NCBI GenBank assembly: GCA_963826185.1
Contig: CAWGVY010000002.1
Span: 18,705 to 82,704, forward strand
From: an uncultured Actinomycetes bacterium
GTDB taxonomy: Bacteria; Actinomycetota; UBA4738; HRBIN12
Direction of reading: 5' to 3'
Length of the DNA: 64,000 nucleotides
The position numbers and the translations under genes were made by a program. Below, one piece after another: positions 29,867 through 39,933 of the stretch; positions within the stretch are counted from its first letter, which is position 1; the number at the start of each line of letters is the position of its first letter. The notes under the pieces were generated by a model. That model was given only the letters and a program-made list of their open reading frames with translations. It was not told where the DNA came from and made no database searches.

Positions 29867-31222
29867 ACGAAGGGTCCGGCCCCGGCGGCGAGATCGAGGT
29901 GCCACGCATCCTGGCCGCGCCGCCGGGGCCGCGCACCCGCGACACCCTGGAGCGGCTGGGCAAGGTGCTGTACCGGGGCCTGGCCGACGAGCTCGGACCG
30001 TTCGTGATCCGTCGCAAGTCGGGGTGGGAGATCGAAGACGTGGACGGCAACGTCTACCTCGACTTCATCAGCGCCATGGCCTCGGTTCCGTTGGGAGCCG
30101 CGCCGAGAGGACATCACGGAGGCGGCGGTGGAGGCGCTCCGCCGCTACGGCAACGAGGACACCCACTACTTCGCGAACGAGTACGTGCTGCCGCTCGTGG
30201 AGAAGCTGCTGGCCGTGGCGCCGGGACAGCTCGCCCGTGTGGACATCGCCTTGAACGGCACGGAGGCCGTGGAGACCGCGATCCGCTTCATGCGCCGCGC
30301 CACCGGCCGGCCGATCGTGATCGGCTTCATGGGTGGCTACCACGGAGAGGCCGGGACCGCGGGCGCGGCCGGCGCAGAGGACGCGGAGATCTCCTACGGG
30401 TACCGGGCCCTGATGCCGGGCTTCGTGCACGTTCCCTACCCTAACCCGTACCGCACGCCGTTCCGGGCCCGACCCGGCGGCTGCGGCGACGGGACCGTGG
30501 ACTACCTCCGCGATCACGTGCTGCACCATGTCGTCGATCCCCGCGAAGTGGCGGGCTTCGTGATCGAACCGGTGATGGGTTCGGGCGGTTGCGTCGCGCC
30601 GCCCGAGGCGTTCTGGCGGGCGCTTACCGAGCTCTGCCACGAACAGGATCTCCTGCTGTGTGCCGACGAGGTGAAGACGGGGTTCGGCCGAACGGGACAC
30701 CTGTTCGCGGTCGAGCGCTGGGGGGTCGAGCCGGACCTGATGGCGTTGGGCAAGGCGATGGGTGGCGGCGTGATGCCGATCGGCGCCGTCCTGGGGACCG
30801 AACGCGCGATGGACTTCGGCGATCTCTCCACCGGTTCCACCTGGTCGTGGCTCCCCGCAGCCTGCGCCGCCGCGATCGAGACCCTCGACGTCTTCGAGCG
30901 CGAGCCGATCCTGGAGCACGTGCGGGCGCTGGAGGAGGAGGGCCGCACCTTGTTGGAGCCGTTGCGCGACCGCTACGCACCGGTGGGTGACGTCCGCGTG
31001 GTGGGCTGCTTCATGGCGATCGAGTTCGTGAAGGACCGCGAGACGAAGGAGCGCGATCCCGAGCTCGGCGAACGCGTCGCACGGGCCTGCATCCAACGCG
31101 GGTTGCTGGTCGACCTCACCTCGACATCCCTGCACCTGCAGCCCTCCCTCGTGACGCCCGTCGAGGTGCTGAGGCAGGGGGTGGCCATCTTGGACGACGC
31201 GATCGCCGAGGTCCTGGGGTGA
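29863..31222 (+). pseudogene. Class-III (omega) aminotransferase, one frameshift
   Basis: ATG 29863 (ATGA overlap with the phoX-like stop). The N-terminal 78 aa are in the frame of ORF 29548..30444 (...YLDFISAMASVPLG). The rest is in ORF 30128..31222 (...REDITEAAVEALRRYG...ADEVKTGFGRTG...). Frame change at about 30094-30104. Confidence 0.8.
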
Positions 31223-32103: not shown

Positions 32104-32115
32104 ACTGTCGACAGT
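32092..32115 (+). promoter_or_regulatory. Candidate GntR-type operator B: GACTGTCG-GTA-GACTGTCGACAGT
   Basis: GACTGTCG repeated at an 11-nt period. The second copy is part of the perfect palindrome ACTGTCGACAGT (32104-32115), which overlaps the GTG start (32114) of the grdE-like gene. Confidence 0.45.
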
Positions 32116-33372
32116 GTCATCCACGCTCGCTGATCTCGAGATCGCGACGTTCGCGGTCGACGAGGTCGTCGAGGGGGACCAGACAGGGCGGGACGGACGC
32201 ACCTTGGTGCTGTCGCTCCCGCAGCTCGCGGTCGGAGCCGGGGAGCCGGCGCTGGCGGAGGCCACGGTCGAGGTCATCCGTCCCGGCGATCCCGTTCGCA
32301 TCGCCAACGTCCTCGACGCCGTGTTGCCCGACGCCCGCGTCGACGATCCTTCGGCCACCTTCCCGGGCGTCGTCGGCTCCGCCGAGGCCGTGGTGGGTGG
32401 CCGGCTCCACCGGCTGACCGGCGTGACGGTGTTGCCCGTATGCGACTGGGCTGCCGCCGGATACGCGGACGCCGCGGAACTCCCCGACAGCTTCGTGGAC
32501 ATGGCAGGACCCGGCGCCGATCGGAGCCCGTTCGGCGCCACGACGAACCTGGTGGTGCGATGCGTCCCGCAACCGGGCGTCTCCGCCGCCGACGCCGATG
32601 CGGCGGTCAGACGGGCGTGCCTACGGCTCGCCAGTGACCTGGCCCTGAGCACGGCTGAGGACGAACCCGATGCCGTGAGGTCGATCGGGCCTGTGGCCTA
32701 CCCGCGATCCTTCCCTGGCCTCGATCGCGGTGATCCTTCAGGTCGCCTCGGAAGGCCCGTTGGTCGACACGTTCTGGCGCGGCTCGCCGATGCGCCCCCT
32801 GACGCCGAGGATCGCCGATCATCGCGAGGTGCTGGGAGGGTGTCTCACGAACGGCGCATACGACTGGCCGGGGGTGCGCAACGTGACCGCGCACTACCAA
32901 GACGGAGCGTTGCTCGTGCGGTGCTGCTCGAGGCCGACGGTGACCGTCTCCGCTACGCGGGCCTGGTGCTGACGCCCGGCTACCTGGACGACGCGGCCGA
33001 GAAGCGTCGGGCGGCGGAGCGCGCCGCCACGCTCGCGGACAGCTTGGGGCCGATGGTGTCGTGTGCACGACCTTCTCCTCCGGCAACTCACACACCGACA
33101 CGATGCTCACGGTCCGGGCGTGCGAAGCGATGCGGCCTGCGGACCGTGGCGCTCGTCGCCGAGACGAACGGTGGGCTCACCGATCACGTTCCCGAGGCCG
33201 ACTGCCTGGTGAGCACGGGGAACGAGGACGAGCTGGTGGAGCCGTGGAGCCCCGCTCGCGTGATCGGTGCGCAGGACGGTGCGCGAGCGGGCGAGCGGGT
33301 CCCGACCGTGCACTACCTGGCGGGCTGCACCGCAGATGGGCGACGCGCGATGGACGGCGGTGCCGGCATTGA
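32114..33372 (+). pseudogene. grdE: Glycine/sarcosine/betaine-reductase component B alpha/beta proprotein (GrdE/PrdA family), at least 4 frameshifts
   Basis: N-terminus in ORF 32114.. (LEIATFAVDEV...VEVIRPGDPVRIANVLDAV...FPGVVG). It continues in ORF 32730..32972 (IAVILQVASEGPLVDT...AHYQDGALL), then back to the first frame (LLEADGDRLRYAGLVLTPG). Next comes ORF 33061.. (ADGVVCTTFSSGNSHTDTMLTVRACEAM), then the first frame again (GLRTVALVAETNGG...). Shifts at about 32695-32725, 32920, 33046-33049 (G4 run) and 33133. The 3' end and stop are uncertain. Confidence 0.75.
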
Positions 33373-34659
33373 TCGTCCATTACCTGAACCAGTTCTTCGC
33401 GGGGTTGGGCGCGGAGGAGGCCGCCGGTCACGAGCCCGTCCGGATCGACGGGCCGGTGGGCCCGGGGCGCGGCCTGGTCGGCTGCCGGCCTTCGTCCCGA
33501 CATCACGCTCGCCTGCGGCGACGACTTCTTCGGTGAGCGGGAGGCCGAGGCGCTCGCCATCCTGGTGGGCTGGCTCGACGAGCTGCAGCCCGAGGTTCTG
33601 GTCTGCGGACCCTCGTTCGGATCGGGCCGCTACGGCTACGCGTGCGGGGTGCTGGCCCGCGAGGCAGGGCGACGAGGCATCCCGGTGGTCGCCGCGATGA
33701 CCGAGGACTCGCCCGGGGTGCTGGCCTCAGAAGGGGCGGCCTACATCGTGCCGACGGGTTCCAACGTCGCGGCGATGAAAGACGCCCTGCCCGCTATGGC
33801 GTCTCTGGCGTCTCGGCTCGCGGCCCGCGAGCCGGTCGGACCCGCCGAGCAGGAGGGCTACCTGCCCCGGGGGTTGCGGACCAATGTCTTCTCGGACCGC
33901 ACGGGGGCCGAGCGGGCGATCGATCTGTTGCTCGCGAAGCTCGCCGGCGATATCCGCACCGAAGTCACGCCGCGTGGGGATCGCGTGCCGCCTCCGCCGG
34001 CCTTGGCCGATCCCGGTGCGGCAACGATCGCTCTGGTGACCGAGGCGGGGTGCGTTCCCCAGGGCAATCCCGACCGCCTGCCGTCGCGTCACGCGCATCA
34101 GTGGCTCCGCTACGCGATCGCCGACCTCGACGGGCTGGATGCGCCGGCCTACAGATCCGTGCACGCGGGCTTCGACACCCACGCCGCGAACCTGGATCCG
34201 AACCGGCTCGTCCCGCTGGACGCGGTCCGCTCCCTCCAGCGTGCCGGGCGCATCGGCGACGTGTATCCGGCGTTCTTCACCACATCGGGCGTCGACACGC
34301 CCGTGGCCGTCGCCGCGCGCTTCGGCCAGGAGATGGCGCTGGAGCTCCGTGAGGCCGGCGTGCAGGCGGTGATCCTCACCGGGACCTGAGGCACCGGCAC
34401 GCGTTGCGGGGCAACGCTGGCGAAGGAACTCGAACGGGAAGGGATCGTGACCGTGTTCGTGACGGCGTTGCCGACGATCGCGCAGATGGTGGGCGCCAAC
34501 CGCATCCTGCGCGGTGTGTCGATCGCGCATCCCACCGGCGATCCCTCGCTGTCGGTGGGTGACGAACACGCCTTGCGCGAACGGATGGTGGGCCGAGCGC
34601 TGGACATGCTGGCGTCCGACGTCGGGCCGGGCACGGTGTGGGAACGGGAGGAACCGTGA
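33360..34659 (+). pseudogene. grdB: Selenoprotein B of glycine/sarcosine/betaine-reductase type (GrdB/GrdF/GrdH family): Sec-UGA at 34387-34389 plus one frameshift
   Basis: GTG 33360 gives (M)PALIVHYLNQFFAGLGAEEAAG. Frame change at about 33478-33486 into the frame of ORF 33565..34389. That ORF and ORF 34447..34659 are in the same frame, separated only by TGA 34387: ...GVQAVILTGT-U-GTGTRCGATLAKELEREGIVTVFVTALPTIAQMVGANRI... This is the conserved Sec context of GrdB. Confidence 0.85.
34401..34417 (+). promoter_or_regulatory. Candidate SECIS hairpin for grdB
   Basis: Perfect GCGTTGC-GGG-GCAACGC stem-loop starting 11 nt after UGA 34387-34389, with a G-rich apical loop. Confidence 0.5.
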
Positions 34660-35973
34660 GCGTGCGGCGCGCCGCCGTGACCGCGGCATCCTTCGTCCTG
34701 GAGCACGTTCCCGACCTGGTGCGGTATGGGTCCAAGCCGGCCAGGGAGCGAGGCGCAGCTGCCCGAGCTCCTGAGATCCCTGCGCTCGTTCGATGACGCG
34801 GTCGCCTATCCGCCGAACCAGGTGTTCATCGGCAACCTTGCACCCCAGGATCTTTGGGATCGCCCCAGGGACTGGTGGGAACACCCCCTCGAAGGCGCCG
34901 CCCCGACCGGCTCGACGGGCGAGGTGATGGATCCTGACGCCTTCTACGACCTGATGCGGGAGGTCGATCGGTTCGATCTGGTCACGTCCGAGTTCGTTCC
35001 CGAGTCCCGCGCGCTGCCCCTCTACCGCGGTACCGCGATCGTGGGAGCGATCGCCCCCGAGCATGAGCAGGACGAGTCGTTGAGCGCCTCCGTGTTGCTC
35101 GAGAACCTCGCGATCAAGGCGAGCGGCGTCCACGCCCTGCGCGATCTGCTCCAGCGAACGCAGATCGACCCCGCATCGATCACCCACGCGATCGGCTGTG
35201 GCGAAGAGGCCGTCGGCGACCGATACCAGCGCGGAGGCGGCAACATGGCCAAGGCGATCGCGGAGGAATGTGGTCTGCTGCGCGCTGCCGCGATCGATGT
35301 CAAGTCGTTCTGTGCGGCACCCGTTCACGCGATGGTCCTGGCCGCCGCCCTGATCGGGTCGGGCATCGAGGAGCGCGTGGTGGTGGTGGCGGGGGGCTCG
35401 CTGGGCAAGCTCGGGATGAAGTTCGAGGGAGCGCTCTCCAAGGGCTTCCCGATCCTGGAAGACGTACTGGCGGGGATGGCGATCCTCCTGGAGCCGGCGG
35501 ACGGCTCCAACGGACCCGTCCTGCGCACCGATGCGGTTGGCAGGATGCCGGTGCAGGCCGGCAACGCTCCCCAGGCTCAGCTGGAAGCGCTGGTGGGCTG
35601 CCCCCTCGACGCCCTGGGGATCACGGTCGGCGACGTGGGGACGTACGCCACCGAGATCCACAACCCGGAGATCACGCAACCGCAGGGCGGTGGCGACGTT
35701 GCGGACCGCAACTACAAGATGTTGGCCGGCCTGGGCGTGGTGCGCGGAGAGCTCGACCGGACCGACATCGCGGGGTTCGCGCGGGCACACGGGATGCCCG
35801 GGTTCGCGCCGACCCAAGGACACATCGCCAGCGCCGTTCCCTGGCTACCGCACGCGCTCGCCCGCATGCGGGCCGGTGAACTGCATCGAACGATGCTGAT
35901 CGCGAAAGGGTCGCTGTTCCTGGGACGCCTCACGCGTCTGTGGGACGGCGTGTCCGTGACGCTCGAGACCTGA
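34656..35973 (+). pseudogene. grdC: Glycine-reductase component C beta subunit (GrdC, thiolase-fold), one frameshift
   Basis: GTG 34656 (GTGA overlap with the grdB stop) gives VSVRRAAVTAASFVLEHVPDLVRYGSKPAR. Frame change at about 34745-34750 into ORF 34726..35973 (...LRSFDDAVAYPPNQVFIGNL...GGGNMAKA...). Confidence 0.8.
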
Positions 35974-35982
35974 GGAGGATCG

Positions 35983-36366
35983 ATGATCGATGCCACCGTG
36001 GACACCTTCCAGGAGCTCGCCGGCACCGGCGAGGTCTTGGTGGACATCTGGGGCCCGCAGTGCCAGCCGTGCCTCGCCCTGATGCCGGCGGTTGAGGCCC
36101 TGGCGGAGACCTACGGCGATCGCGTGCGGTTCGTGAAGGTGAACGCGCCGGAGAACCGGAGGATCTGCCGGGACCTGCGGGTGGCCGGCCTTCCCGCCTA
36201 CGTGACCCTGCGCGACGGGGTCGAGGTCGAGCGACTCACGAGCGCCGGGACCACGCCCAGGCAGATCGAGGACGCCATCGTCCGACTCGTGAACGGAGCG
36301 CCGGCGGTCGGTCCGCCGGTGCCGGAACACCTGCGCGAGCAGGCCGAGACCGCCGAAGGGGGGTGA
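35983..36366 (+). CDS. Thioredoxin-like protein with atypical active site WGPQCQPC
   Basis: ORF 35983..36366(+): thioredoxin fold with a CQPC dithiol, located between grdC and grdA as in clostridial grd operons. Confidence 0.8.
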   Translation: MIDATVDTFQELAGTGEVLVDIWGPQCQPCLALMPAVEALAETYGDRVRFVKVNAPENRRICRDLRVAGLPAYVTLRDGVEVERLTSAGTTPRQIEDAIVRLVNGAPAVGPPVPEHLREQAETAEGG

Positions 36367-36369
36367 CCC

Positions 36370-36828
36370 ATGGATCTACAGGGCAAGAAGGTGATCGCTC
36401 TCGGAGAGCGGGACAGCGTTCCCGGTGAGGCGATCGCCGAGGTGGCGCGTTCCGCCGGTGCCGAGGTGATCGAGGTGCGAACGGAGTGCTTCGTCTGAAC
36501 GGCGTCCGGTGCCATGGATCCGGACAACCAGGCGCTGATCAAACGGATCGTCGATGAGATCGGCAGCGACGACGTCGTGGTGATGCTCGGAGCCGCCGAC
36601 GCGGAGGCGGTCGAGGTCGCCGTCGAGACCGTCCGAGATGGCGATCCCGCCTGGGTGGGTCCATTGGCCGGGGTCCAGTTGGGACTCCCCGTGCTGCACG
36701 TGTTCGAGGACGAGGTGAAACGTCAGGCCGACGACGGCGTCTACGAGGCGCAGATCGGCTTCTTCGAGATGACCCTGGACGTCGACCAGGTGAAGGAGGC
36801 GATGAAGCGCGCCCGCGGCGAGACCTGA
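36370..36828 (+). CDS. grdA: Glycine/sarcosine/betaine-reductase selenoprotein A (Sec-UGA at 36496-36498)
   Basis: ATG 36370 gives MDLQGKKVIALGERDSVPGEAIAEVARSAGAEVIEVRTECFV-U-TASGAMDPDNQALIKRIVDE...GDPAWVGPLAGVQLGLPVLHVFE. The TGA is in frame with ORF 36514..36828. CFVUTA(A/S)GAMD is the GrdA active-site signature. Confidence 0.9.
36504..36525 (+). promoter_or_regulatory. Candidate SECIS hairpin for grdA
   Basis: GTCCGG-TGCCATGGAT-CCGGAC stem-loop beginning 5 nt after UGA 36496-36498. Confidence 0.45.
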
Positions 36829-36832
36829 GCCG

Positions 36833-37906
36833 TTACCGCCGCTTCGCGACCTCGAACTGGGCGGTCGTGGGAGCGGCGAGCGTCTGGTCGCCCGAATCCA
36901 ACGTGAAGTCGAACGATCCCATCGGGCCGGTGAGCGTCCAGGTCGTTCGCTTGCAGTGCGGTCCGGTCGCGACGACCTTCGCGCCCTTCGTGTACGTCAT
37001 CGTCCCACCCGGTTGCACGAAGGGTTGTCCGATGTCGCTCAGGATCTCCACCTGCGTAGGCGTCGCCGTGATCACCTCGGGATCGCCGAACGCGAACAGC
37101 AGGTGCGTGACGACCGCGACACCCACCTGCTCCTGCTCCTGGAGCACCAGCGCGTTCTCCTCCCTCGAAGAGAACGCGTCGATGATGTACCCGCCCATGC
37201 CGACCGGCTGCAGGCCGTCGAACGTGCGGCCCACGTCGCAGGTCGTGCCGAATGGGCACGGGTTGTCGGTGTACTTGTCACGCTCGATCGTCGCACGGAC
37301 GTGCGAGATGTTGACGTCCGAGGGCATCTGTGGATCGGAGTAGCCGGGGAAGAAGGTCATGGAGCCACGGAGCATGCCGCGACGCCGGCTGCGGGTCGTG
37401 AGGAGCGCGCCGGTCTTGGGACAACGGTCCTTCGATCGCGTGATCGGACCCAGACCTTCCAAGTCCATGAAGATGGCGCCGTAGCCGGGGATCAAGCCGG
37501 TGTCCAGCCCCACGTGACGCAACTGCGCGTCGAACTGCAGGGATCCCGCCGGCAGGTCGAACTCCCAGATGTGGACCTGCTCGGGGTGGGTTCCAGACGG
37601 GGCGGCGCGGTCCGCGATCACGCGCAGGTTCGGGTCCGAGGGGGGCGAGCCCGGTCCCGGACGGTACTGAGAGGCTTCAAGCGACCAGAAGTAGGGGGAC
37701 CCGTCCACCTTGAAGGGCGCCGTGGTGAGGGTGGTGTAGGAGGCTCCTCCCGCACGCCGATGCGGGGCTGACGGATGGATGAGCCGATCCATCCGCCGGG
37801 GCAGGTGGTGGGCCGCGGCGGCCGACGCTGCCTCGAACGAGGTCAGCATCAGGGCGCCCACGAGCACCAGGGCGGTCGATCGGATCCGGCGAGAAGCGGT
37901 CAGCAC
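36833..37906 (-). CDS. Secreted hypothetical protein (357 aa)
   Basis: GTG 37906 is preceded by GGAGGG. Signal-like VLTASRRIRSTALVLVGALMLTSFEAASAAAA. This is the C-terminal part of track ORF 36833..38845(-). No family recognised. Confidence 0.6.
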   Translation of the reverse strand: MLTASRRIRSTALVLVGALMLTSFEAASAAAAHHLPRRMDRLIHPSAPHRRAGGASYTTLTTAPFKVDGSPYFWSLEASQYRPGPGSPPSDPNLRVIADRAAPSGTHPEQVHIWEFDLPAGSLQFDAQLRHVGLDTGLIPGYGAIFMDLEGLGPITRSKDRCPKTGALLTTRSRRRGMLRGSMTFFPGYSDPQMPSDVNISHVRATIERDKYTDNPCPFGTTCDVGRTFDGLQPVGMGGYIIDAFSSREENALVLQEQEQVGVAVVTHLLFAFGDPEVITATPTQVEILSDIGQPFVQPGGTMTYTKGAKVVATGPHCKRTTWTLTGPMGSFDFTLDSGDQTLAAPTTAQFEVAKRR

Positions 37907-37974
37907 GAGGTCCCTCCACGTTCGACTCGACGATGAGGAAGGTATCGGCCGTGGGGGGGCGTTTCCACAACCCT

Positions 37975-38797
37975 CTAGCCCGTGAGGGGGCGATCGGGCG
38001 GCGAAGGAGGTGCGTCGGCGTCGTCGTACCAGCTGCCGCCGCCCAGCTCGCCCCCGTCCACGATCAGCGTTTGGGCGCTGATGAAACGAGCATCGTCGCT
38101 CGCGAGGAACAGCACCGCCATCGCCTGATCCCGGGGGGTCCCCGCGTGCCGCAACGGGATCCGGGAGAGATAGCGAGTGACCAGATCGCGTTCGCGGGGA
38201 TCGGCGGCCATCTCCGCTTCGGCCTCCGGGGTGATCGTCTCCCCCGGAGCGACGCAGTTCGCGCGGATCCCGTGGTGGCCCATCTCGTGGGCCACGGCCT
38301 TCGTTGAGCGCGACCAACGCCGCTTTCGACGCGTTGTAGATCGATTCGGGTGATTCGTTCTGGAAGGCGTTCGCGCTGGCGATGTTGACGATCGAGCCGG
38401 GGGAACCGCGCTCGATCAGGTGCCGGCAGACGTCCTGCATCAACAGCAGTGGGGCTCCCACGTTGACGGCGAAGCACGCGTCGAGATCTTCGGTCGTGAC
38501 GTCGAGCACCGGGCCGTCGGGCTGGGCGCCGGCGTTGTTGACCAGCACGTCGACCCCTCCTTGGGTCTCGATCGCGGCCGGGACGATCGTCCGCACCTGG
38601 GTCGGGTCCGCCAGGTCGGTGGCGTGGGTCCGCAGCCGACCAGCGTGGGGATGCGTGGCCGCCATGACCTCGAGCCCCTCCTCCAGGACGTCGGTGGCCA
38701 GCACGCTGGCGCCCTCATCCAGGAAGGCGTCCACGATCCCACGTCCGATCCCCCGGGCGCCTCCGGTCACGATCACGCGTCGTCCCTCGAACCTCAT
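37975..38797 (-). pseudogene. Short-chain dehydrogenase/reductase (SDR), one frameshift
   Basis: ATG 38797 gives MRFEGRRVIVTGGARGIGRGI...NNAG...YNASKAALVAL in the frame of ORF 36833..38845. It continues as TKAVAHEMGHHGIRANCVAPG...IVDGG in ORF 37975..38295. Shift at about 38303-38308. Confidence 0.8.
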
Positions 38798-38804
38798 CCT
38801 TCGT

Positions 38805-39933
38805 TCACCCCTCCTGGCCGGCTCGGACGACCCCGAGCGTGACATCCTGCAGCGCTTCGGGATCCAGCTCGACCCCGATTCCCGCGCCGTCCGGTGCGTC
38901 GATGCATCCGTCCTCTCCGGTCCGCAGGGTGCGCGTCACCCCGTATTCGAACGGTTCCGGCGGCACCGCCTGCTCGAAGAAGGACGTCCGTTCGAAGGCC
39001 AGCGCGGCGTGCAGGTTGGCGGCTTGGATCACGGTGTGGCCGTAGCTGGTGAGCTCGACCGGCAGGCCGGCTTCGGCCGCCACCTCCATCAGGGACGACG
39101 TGGGGGTCAGGCCACCCACGAACGACACGTCAAATCGGACGGCGTCCCAGGGGGGATCGCGGAGGATGTCGCGCAACAACCGCGGGTCCCAGACCGCGTC
39201 GCCGGCGGGAAGGATCGGTACGTCCTGCACGGCTCGGCCGAAGCGCTCGGTACCCGGGAAGATCGAAGTCGGGGAGGGGGGCCTCGAACCAGCGAGCCCC
39301 GATCTCCGCGCAGACCCGCGCCACGCCGAGGGCACCGTCGGCGTCGTAGCGGCCCTCAGCATCGTGCATCACCGTCAGGGAGCCGAACGCGGATCGGATC
39401 GCCCGCAGCAGGGCGGCGTCGCGATCGGGGTCGCCCCACGCGTGCACCTTGATCGCCCCGAACCCAGCCTGGACCTGATCCTCGATCGCGCTCAGGTAGT
39501 CCGTCTCAGCGTCGAAGGTGGGGATCGAGGCGTAGGAGGGCAGGGCGTCCGAGCGACCGGGGCCCAGGATCCGTCGCAACGGCTCGCCCGCGCGGCGGGC
39601 GGCCAGATCCCACAACGCGATGTCCACGGTGGACCGGACGGCGGGCGGGAACGGCGAGGTCCCATCCTCGCTGAGCATGGCCGCCACCCGGTTCCGGTCC
39701 TCGGCGTCGATCCCGATCAGCGGCGGGATCAGGGTCCTCAGGGTCTCCAGCGGCGCTCGATCCCAGTCCCCGTAGGTATCGGAGTCGTAGGCGCCGATGC
39801 CCGCGACACCGTCCTCATCGGTGATGCGCACGAGCGTCGTCGTCGTGAAGACCTCCGGTTGGAACGAGGTGTAGCGGAAGCGTTCCACGGGCGGCCCGAT
39901 CGCTCGTGCCTCCACGTCCCCGATCCTCGACAT
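38805..39933 (-). pseudogene. Enolase-superfamily enzyme (mandelate racemase/muconate lactonizing family), one frameshift
   Basis: N-terminus in ORF 39130..39933(-) (...GIGAYDS...IKVHAWGDP...MHDAEGRYD...WFEAPLP). C-terminus in ORF 38805..39362(-) (VPILPAGD...VRFDVSFVGGLT...). Shift at about 39234-39245. Confidence 0.75.

Follow-up and report, generated by a model that had tools for sequence, protein, structure and literature searches.

A grdA gene with an in-frame UGA, very probably read as selenocysteine, in a Grd-type operon of uncultured Actinomycetota

In the known Grd systems protein B is formed by a pair of subunits, GrdB/GrdE for glycine, GrdF/GrdG for sarcosine and GrdH/GrdI for betaine. 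Few bacterial selenoproteins are as widespread, or have been known for as long, as selenoprotein A (GrdA) (PMC5029168, Table 3; PMC13188914), which ranks fourth among bacterial selenoprotein families by the number of organisms (PMC5029168, Table 3); references cited within PMC13188914 trace its recognition as UGA-encoded to the 1980s and 1990s. Its CxxU motif has also been described (PMC13188914). The catalytic cycle can be taken from the family literature (PMC13188914; PMC9908766). By analogy, the protein B encoded at the locus studied here (GrdB with a GrdE-like partner) would be substrate-specific and would transfer a carboxymethyl group to the selenol on GrdA, whose redox centre would be Cys40-x-x-Sec43. 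Cys40 would then attack, forming a Se-S bond, the acetyl equivalent would be released to protein C (GrdC) and GrdA would be re-reduced by the adjacent thioredoxin, its presumed reductant.

In the present study we analyzed a 64-kb stretch of DNA, called the window hereafter, in which the region 36370-36828 very probably constitutes a single ordinary grdA gene, coding for selenoprotein A of a Grd-type complex, with UGA 36496-98 read as selenocysteine. As judged from its sequence, it is a further example of a long-known gene type: the full-length profile match (PF04723 and NF040748), the CxxU motif with an in-frame UGA and the N-terminal segment are all found in the same protein. The operon runs in one orientation in the order grdE-like, grdB, grdC, trx, grdA (Table 1) and is conserved in a clade of Actinomycetota that are uncultured and come mostly from soil.

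Table 1. Features of the grd operon and sites of frame change in the window
Feature	Position	Strand	Description and basis
Aminotransferase gene	near 30110		frame change
grdE/G/I-like gene, protein B partner subunit	32114..33372	+	Pfam Gly_reductase; frames by piecewise tblastn
grdE-like gene, frameshifts	between 32680 and 33350		at least 5 frameshifts; frames 2,3,2,1,2,3 (piecewise tblastn)
grdE/grdB junction	33366-33375		orthologs GCATGACGATC with overlapping TGA stop and ATG start; window GCATTGATC, 2 nt shorter
grdB, selenoprotein	33369..34659	+	Sec TGA 34387-89 in LTGT-U-GTGTRCG; Pfam GRDB 293 bits; translation
grdB, frameshift	near 33470		
grdB SECIS hairpin	34401..34417	+	GCGUUGC-GGG-GCAACGC; Rfam, folding, covariation
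grdC, protein C beta subunit	34656..35973	+	GTG start overlaps grdB stop (GTGA); NCBIfam NF040746 514 bits, cut-off 450
grdC, frameshift	near 34740		N-terminus in another frame
Thioredoxin gene (trx)	35983..36366	+	intact; Pfam Thioredoxin
Shine-Dalgarno sequence before grdA start	36356..36363	+	AAGGGGGG; read from sequence
grdA, complete coding sequence	36370..36828	+	152 codons including Sec43, plus stop TGA 36826-28
CxxU redox motif	36487..36498	+	Cys40 (TGC), Phe, Val, Sec43 (TGA 36496-98); sequence; ECFV-TGA-TASGAMD in 53/53 loci
Hairpin after grdA UGA	36504..36525	+	GTCCGG (36504-09)-N10-CCGGAC (36520-25); present in window, SECIS role putative
SDR gene	near 38300		frame change
MR_MLE gene	near 39250		frame change
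Solute-binding protein gene	between 43540 and 44110		3-4 changes
First permease gene	between 44500 and 44850		two changes

The grdA gene and its product

The sequence reads, from ATG 36370, 42 codons up to the in-frame TGA 36496-98, and past this codon the frame stays open, via ATG 36514, until it ends in the stop 36826-28. The original prediction had described this reading, with the frame running on into the open reading frame 36514..36828, and every coordinate proved to be correct. It had also stated that the 42 N-terminal codons were missing from the open reading frame track, and indeed 36514..36828 (104 aa) is the only part of grdA in the mechanical list. The joined translation, 152 aa long, contains ...TECFV-U-TASGAMDPDNQ... 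The stop codon of the thioredoxin gene (TGA, 36364-66) is placed between the Shine-Dalgarno sequence and the grdA start.

For profile searches of the joined protein, Cys was written at the UGA position. The score was 193 bits against Pfam GRDA (PF04723), whose cut-off is 22, over profile positions 1-147 of 147, and 196 bits against NF040748 (cut-off 130), the NCBIfam equivalog model for "glycine/sarcosine/betaine reductase complex selenoprotein A". This match is far beyond chance, and both scores agree with the claim that the joined product corresponds to GrdA along its whole length. A profile search of the N-terminal segment had been proposed as a check, and residues 1-42 match Pfam GRDA unaided, at 48 bits (E 1.5e-12, profile positions 1-40); the 104-aa piece alone gives 118 bits over positions 47-147. 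The joined score is higher than the sum of the pieces, 48 + 118, and the surplus comes from the CFVUTA stretch across the UGA.

Orthologs were collected in a scan of one genome per species, which gave 48 loci, and 6 more loci came from ENA metagenome contigs. All but one of the scan loci (47/48) belong to uncultured Actinomycetota or Actinomycetes MAGs, many with MFD isolate names and others from short-read assemblies. The GrdA of the window is 91% identical to the ortholog of locus L001 over residues 1-152.

Operon make-up and frameshifts in the Grd island

Locus L003 provides an intact version of the operon, with products of 418 aa (GrdE-like), 428 aa (GrdB, with U), 439 aa (GrdC), 119 aa (thioredoxin, with CQPC) and 152 aa (GrdA, with U). 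The thioredoxin of the window is 82% identical to its L001 ortholog and scores 90.8 bits against the NCBIfam clostridial TrxA model, below the cut-off; the CQPC active site was read in the orthologous thioredoxins of L003 and L055. Regarding a complete Grd complex, grdB and a grdE/G/I-type partner are adjacent, both frameshifted in the window, and from the grdC and grdD pair only grdC was found at the locus. No PlsX-like grdD (protein C alpha subunit) and no trxB are present in the 64-kb window or within 8 kb on either side of loci L001-L006, and grdD could be located elsewhere in the genome. Neither selA, selB, selC nor selD was found in the 64-kb window, a tRNA-Sec search gave none in the window or in 49 related loci, and a scan of the operon for promoters and terminators found none. 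The conserved neighbours comprise class-III aminotransferases, an SGL-family protein, an SDR, an enolase-superfamily (MR_MLE) enzyme, a GntR regulator and an ABC importer. The stretch of about 1.1 kb that separates grdA from the SDR gene (36833-37975) has a coding-type GC3 signal on the minus strand and no Pfam family; it is missing from some orthologous loci, e.g. L049.

With respect to the type of Grd system, the B selenoprotein of an intact ortholog falls in the TIGR01918 subfamily (401 bits) and carries a U-x-x-C-x-x-C motif. None of the substrate-specific NCBIfam cut-offs for the glycine, sarcosine or betaine equivalogs is reached by the intact orthologs, with 404 bits against GrdF (cut-off 800), 369 against GrdB (602) and 366 against GrdH (775) for the selenoprotein, and 169 bits against GrdG (780) for the partner subunit. 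In the GrdE-like subunit of L003 (3608-4864, ortholog of 32114-33372), Cys is absent from about residue 200 to about residue 310. In C. difficile GrdE, the pyruvoyl group is formed from Cys242 (PMC9908766). Compared with that protein by position only, the GrdE-like subunit may be an unprocessed, GrdI-like one.

In comparison with the orthologs, the window bears at least 15 frameshifts, all of them within 29.9-44.9 kb, and grdA is intact. The SGL-family, trx and GntR genes, the second permease, the ATPase and the second aminotransferase of this island are also intact. At the grdE/grdB junction, the loss of 2 nt eliminates the ATG and brings grdB into phase with the C-terminal frame of grdE. Beyond 29.9-44.9 kb, Pfam domains are covered completely in about 16 genes, and wherever the frame switches on the same strand a stop codon is found; a GC3 frame-plot scan was too coarse inside the grd genes and showed ordinary gene boundaries in the rest of the window. 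Homopolymer context was not consistently present at the frameshift sites. Since grdE-like, grdB and grdC are frameshifted, the intact grdA may lack working partners, and it is uncertain, from the state of these neighbouring genes, whether the Grd system works in this genome.

A serious possibility, although not the favoured one, is that grdA is real but a remnant: the Grd catabolic island of 29.9-44.9 kb would be in the course of being lost, and grdA would be intact merely through its shortness. Such decay would account for frameshifts in the aminotransferase, grdE-like, grdB, grdC, SDR, MR_MLE, solute-binding protein and permease genes, for their strict clustering next to complete genes outside the island and for the 2-nt deletion between grdE and grdB, by which their ATG/TGA overlap is abolished. 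Bacteria have documented cases of selenoprotein gene loss (PMC1794560), and about 15 random events over about 13 kb would spare a 459-nt gene with a probability of roughly 0.6. However, all in-frame segments are free of nonsense mutations, and no more than one gap interrupts each main in-frame alignment of grdB, grdC, SDR and MR_MLE, a pattern typical of consensus indel errors and not of natural decay. The out-of-frame stretches are also up to 96% identical in protein to the orthologs. In addition, gene disruptions differ from one to the next of the long-read assemblies of one species (L001-L006), a sign of assembly noise in such data, and at least one related MAG has two copies of the locus (L015 and L018), a duplication that can confuse polishing. 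In this sense, a local consensus artefact is somewhat likelier than real decay. The intactness of grdA is uninformative here because the gene is only 459 nt long.

Two further observations concern the related assemblies. L015 and L018 are two contigs of one MAG (MFD09730.bin.2.61) and both carry the grd locus; a single genome can therefore contain it twice. Locus L001 has one extra G at about 5895, just after the grdB UGA (GGCACAGGGCACG versus GGCACAGGCACG in the near-identical L002-L006), which shifts the frame and is an example of indel noise in metagenome assemblies.

The SECIS of grdB and the hairpin after the grdA UGA

We also found that grdB is missing from the open reading frame list, being cut at its UGA. 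The Pfam GRDB match stops exactly at TGA 34387-89, and the frame LTGT-U-GTGTRCGATL continues to the stop at 34657-59; this TGA is kept in the orthologs. The hairpin that follows fits the bacterial SECIS consensus, with a 7-bp stem, a GGG loop and the apical loop 18 nt after the UGA. It matches Rfam SECIS_4 (RF01990) at 37 bits, against a gathering score of 38 (E 3e-6, over 34390-34427), it folds with -10.4 kcal/mol, a stability reached by none of 200 shuffles, and 98.7% of cells are paired across 32 distinct orthologs. Six grdB orthologs show a compensatory change from U-A to C-G via a non-synonymous Thr-to-Val substitution, and a consensus-model scan finds the element in 32/32 sequences. The presence of a UGA at the known Sec site of grdB together with a covarying SECIS_4-type element argues strongly that the lineage decodes UGA as selenocysteine.

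Unlike the grdB element, the sequence after the grdA UGA is off the SECIS consensus and belongs to no Rfam SECIS family. The hairpin GTCCGG-N10-CCGGAC, pointed out in the original prediction, exists at the place given there; its implied role as a SECIS did not gain comparable support, given that covariation was absent, the hairpin deviates from two of the four consensus criteria and Rfam gave no match. According to these criteria, a bacterial SECIS has a loop of 3-9 nt, an upper stem of 4-16 bp, a G in the first two loop positions, 16-37 nt from the UGA to the apical loop and an MFE of -7.5 kcal/mol or lower (PMC13188914, Fig. 2A legend). The hairpin agrees in its MFE of -9.9 kcal/mol and in the G at position 2 of its loop UGCCAUGGAU, and departs from the consensus in its loop of 10 nt on a 6-bp stem and in its spacing of 11 nt (36499-36509). 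Its stability is not clearly beyond chance (z -1.9; 9 of 200 shuffles fold equally well). The UGA plus 42 nt of grdA folds with -16.7 kcal/mol.

We consider it unlikely that this hairpin serves grdA as its functional SECIS. It begins 5 nt after the UGA with a perfect, G+C-rich stem, the second base of its loop is an invariant G, and at the synonymous pair Ser46.3/Pro51.3 C-G is found in 12 orthologs and G-C or G-U in 11. Yet four of the six pairs are invariant because they are fixed by the Ser-Gly...Pro-Asp codons (UCN-GGN...CCN-GAY), and the loop G because an Ala codon begins with it. Of the pairs that are free to vary, the two at synonymous sites, one is open in 25/44 and the other in 21/44 orthologs, about half of the set, the covariation score in these 44 sequences is matched by 175 of 500 shuffles, and the 6-bp stem as such is not conserved among the orthologs. 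Competing folds, namely the helix 36511-17 with 36528-33 and a long imperfect stem, score equally well, and other helices, e.g. the former, are predicted at least as often among the orthologs. In the Rfam search no SECIS family matched the sequence after the grdA UGA, whereas the grdB element was matched.

Other approaches to a SECIS in grdA gave similar outcomes. A consensus-model scan, in a simple implementation, detected none after the grdA UGA in the window or in 40/45 orthologs. Mean base-pair probabilities over 45 grdA orthologs gave no pair above 0.42, and the synonymous-site entropy along grdA displayed no obvious suppression after the UGA. The comparison of MFE with synonymous recoding downstream of the UGA was non-discriminating, with a mean z of about 0 for grdA and grdB alike; as the clear grdB SECIS was missed by this test, an MFE excess is unusable in the G+C-rich sequence considered here. 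A recent review states that a subset of bacterial selenoprotein genes departs from the SECIS consensus (2026; PMC13188914). Further downstream in grdA, codons 97-105 (GPLAGVQLG, 36658-36690) contain the otherwise rare codons GGT, CCA, TTG, TTG and GGA, conserved in 30-43 of about 45 orthologs, and a conserved 7-bp hairpin, GGGGUCC-AGUUG-GGACUCC, is located within the same stretch.

Decoding of the grdA UGA and comparison with known Grd systems

The orthologs argue for selenocysteine at the grdA UGA. ECFV-TGA-TASGAMD is found in one frame, with the codon always being TGA, in all 53 motif-bearing loci, and the terminal grdA stop is TGA in 37 orthologs, TAG in 11 and TAA in 2; given the varying terminal stops, the constant internal TGA is unlike an ordinary stop. 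Orthologs that start at the downstream ATG would have spoken against the prediction, and none was found, the upstream frame and the TGA being kept throughout (53/53). The codon aligned with ATG 36370 is ATG in 44 orthologs and GTG in 5, and GGAGGTGA or GGGGGTGA lies 6-10 nt 5' of it in nearly all ortholog loci; in the window, no Shine-Dalgarno-like sequence was read 5' of ATG 36514. Codons 1-42 of grdA vary synonymously among the orthologs and the amino acids are conserved. TGA is also the ordinary stop of trx, grdB and grdA, therefore the genetic code is not reassigned.

An AlphaFold model of a Cys homologue with 68% identity, of moderate confidence (pLDDT 67, pTM 0.65), places strands b1 and b2, of four, and helix a1 within residues 1-42; its CxxU loop is disordered. 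On this model, the 104-aa product alone would be an incomplete fold, with half of the beta-sheet missing. Searches of PDB sequences with GrdA, the GrdE-like protein and GrdB gave nothing useful, and Foldseek with the GrdA-type model against the PDB returned generic alpha/beta matches alone (E of 0.009 or higher, TM about 0.35).

The alternative that UGA 36496-98 is a plain stop, yielding a 42-aa peptide and a separate 104-aa protein from ATG 36514, is what open reading frame finders and gene callers put out, and it might draw on the ATG 15 nt 3' of the UGA and on the failure to find a consensus SECIS for grdA, but it is extremely improbable: ATG 36514 codes for the conserved Met49 of the GAMD motif, present in all GrdA proteins, and has no Shine-Dalgarno sequence, both pieces lie within one Pfam domain that scores higher for the joined protein than for the two pieces together, the TGA is present in every ortholog though their real stops vary, and Cys-type homologues run straight through with TGC or TGT. 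Selenocysteine at position 43 of a single GrdA thus is the reading that we adopt in what follows.

Regarding other codons at this position, Cys-type GrdA genes were observed with TGC in an ENA soil contig (L055, 394-396) and with TGT in a contig of a Bathyarchaeota MAG (L050, about 495-497). A survey of 2006 knew of no Cys homologue of GrdA at that time (PMC1794560). One further sequence, P0052, has GGA at the Sec position on a contig with 1.4x coverage, which is probably an error.

The main value of these findings concerns annotation, since the window contains two selenoprotein genes, grdA and grdB, that are interrupted at their UGA codons in the open reading frame list. Truncation at UGA by gene callers is a familiar artefact. 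Here, gene callers cut the orthologous grdA genes into products of 42 and 104 aa, and among the best 120 GrdA relatives in a collection of 5.8 billion proteins, 116 start at the Met after the UGA, i.e., they are stored as fragments. In this sense, counts of the selenoproteome and of Grd metabolism in soil Actinomycetota are likely too low. The pair of grdA and grdB also marks the lineage as a selenocysteine user.

Literature searches gave no paper dealing with Grd systems of soil Actinomycetota. The locus is somewhat unusual in its host clade, its operon make-up and the missing consensus SECIS for grdA. Tentatively, the operon may represent an uncharacterised, Actinomycetota-specific Grd branch, a reductase for a new substrate, with a protein B of no known substrate class, possibly without a Cys-derived pyruvoyl group, a grdC without adjacent grdD and a grdA UGA decoded without a consensus-type SECIS. 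If so, the linked ABC transporter would bring in the new substrate, the aminotransferase, SDR and enolase-superfamily enzymes linked to the operon would prepare it, and Grd chemistry would take place in soil bacteria not known for Stickland-type chemistry. The operon offers a concrete system for asking which compounds Grd enzymes reduce in organisms other than the classical anaerobes and to what extent recognition by SelB can depart from the consensus.

Compared with known systems, the differences are in the host, the gene order and the surroundings of the UGA. Instead of a Clostridia-type anaerobe, the host here is an uncultured, high-G+C (68.5%) Actinomycetota lineage. The gene order is grdE-like, grdB, grdC, trx, grdA, with no grdD or trxB nearby, and no consensus-type SECIS follows the grdA UGA of the window. 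The selenoprotein of protein B falls in the TIGR01918 subfamily and its partner carries the Pfam Gly_reductase domain, as in the described protein B pairs, but the orthologs differ from GrdB/GrdE, GrdF/GrdG and GrdH/GrdI in scores far below every substrate-specific cut-off. In its own features the gene resembles known grdA: the product has about 150 aa and a full-length profile match, the CxxU motif has its UGA-encoded Sec at the same position, and the gene is linked to grdB, grdC and a thioredoxin gene.
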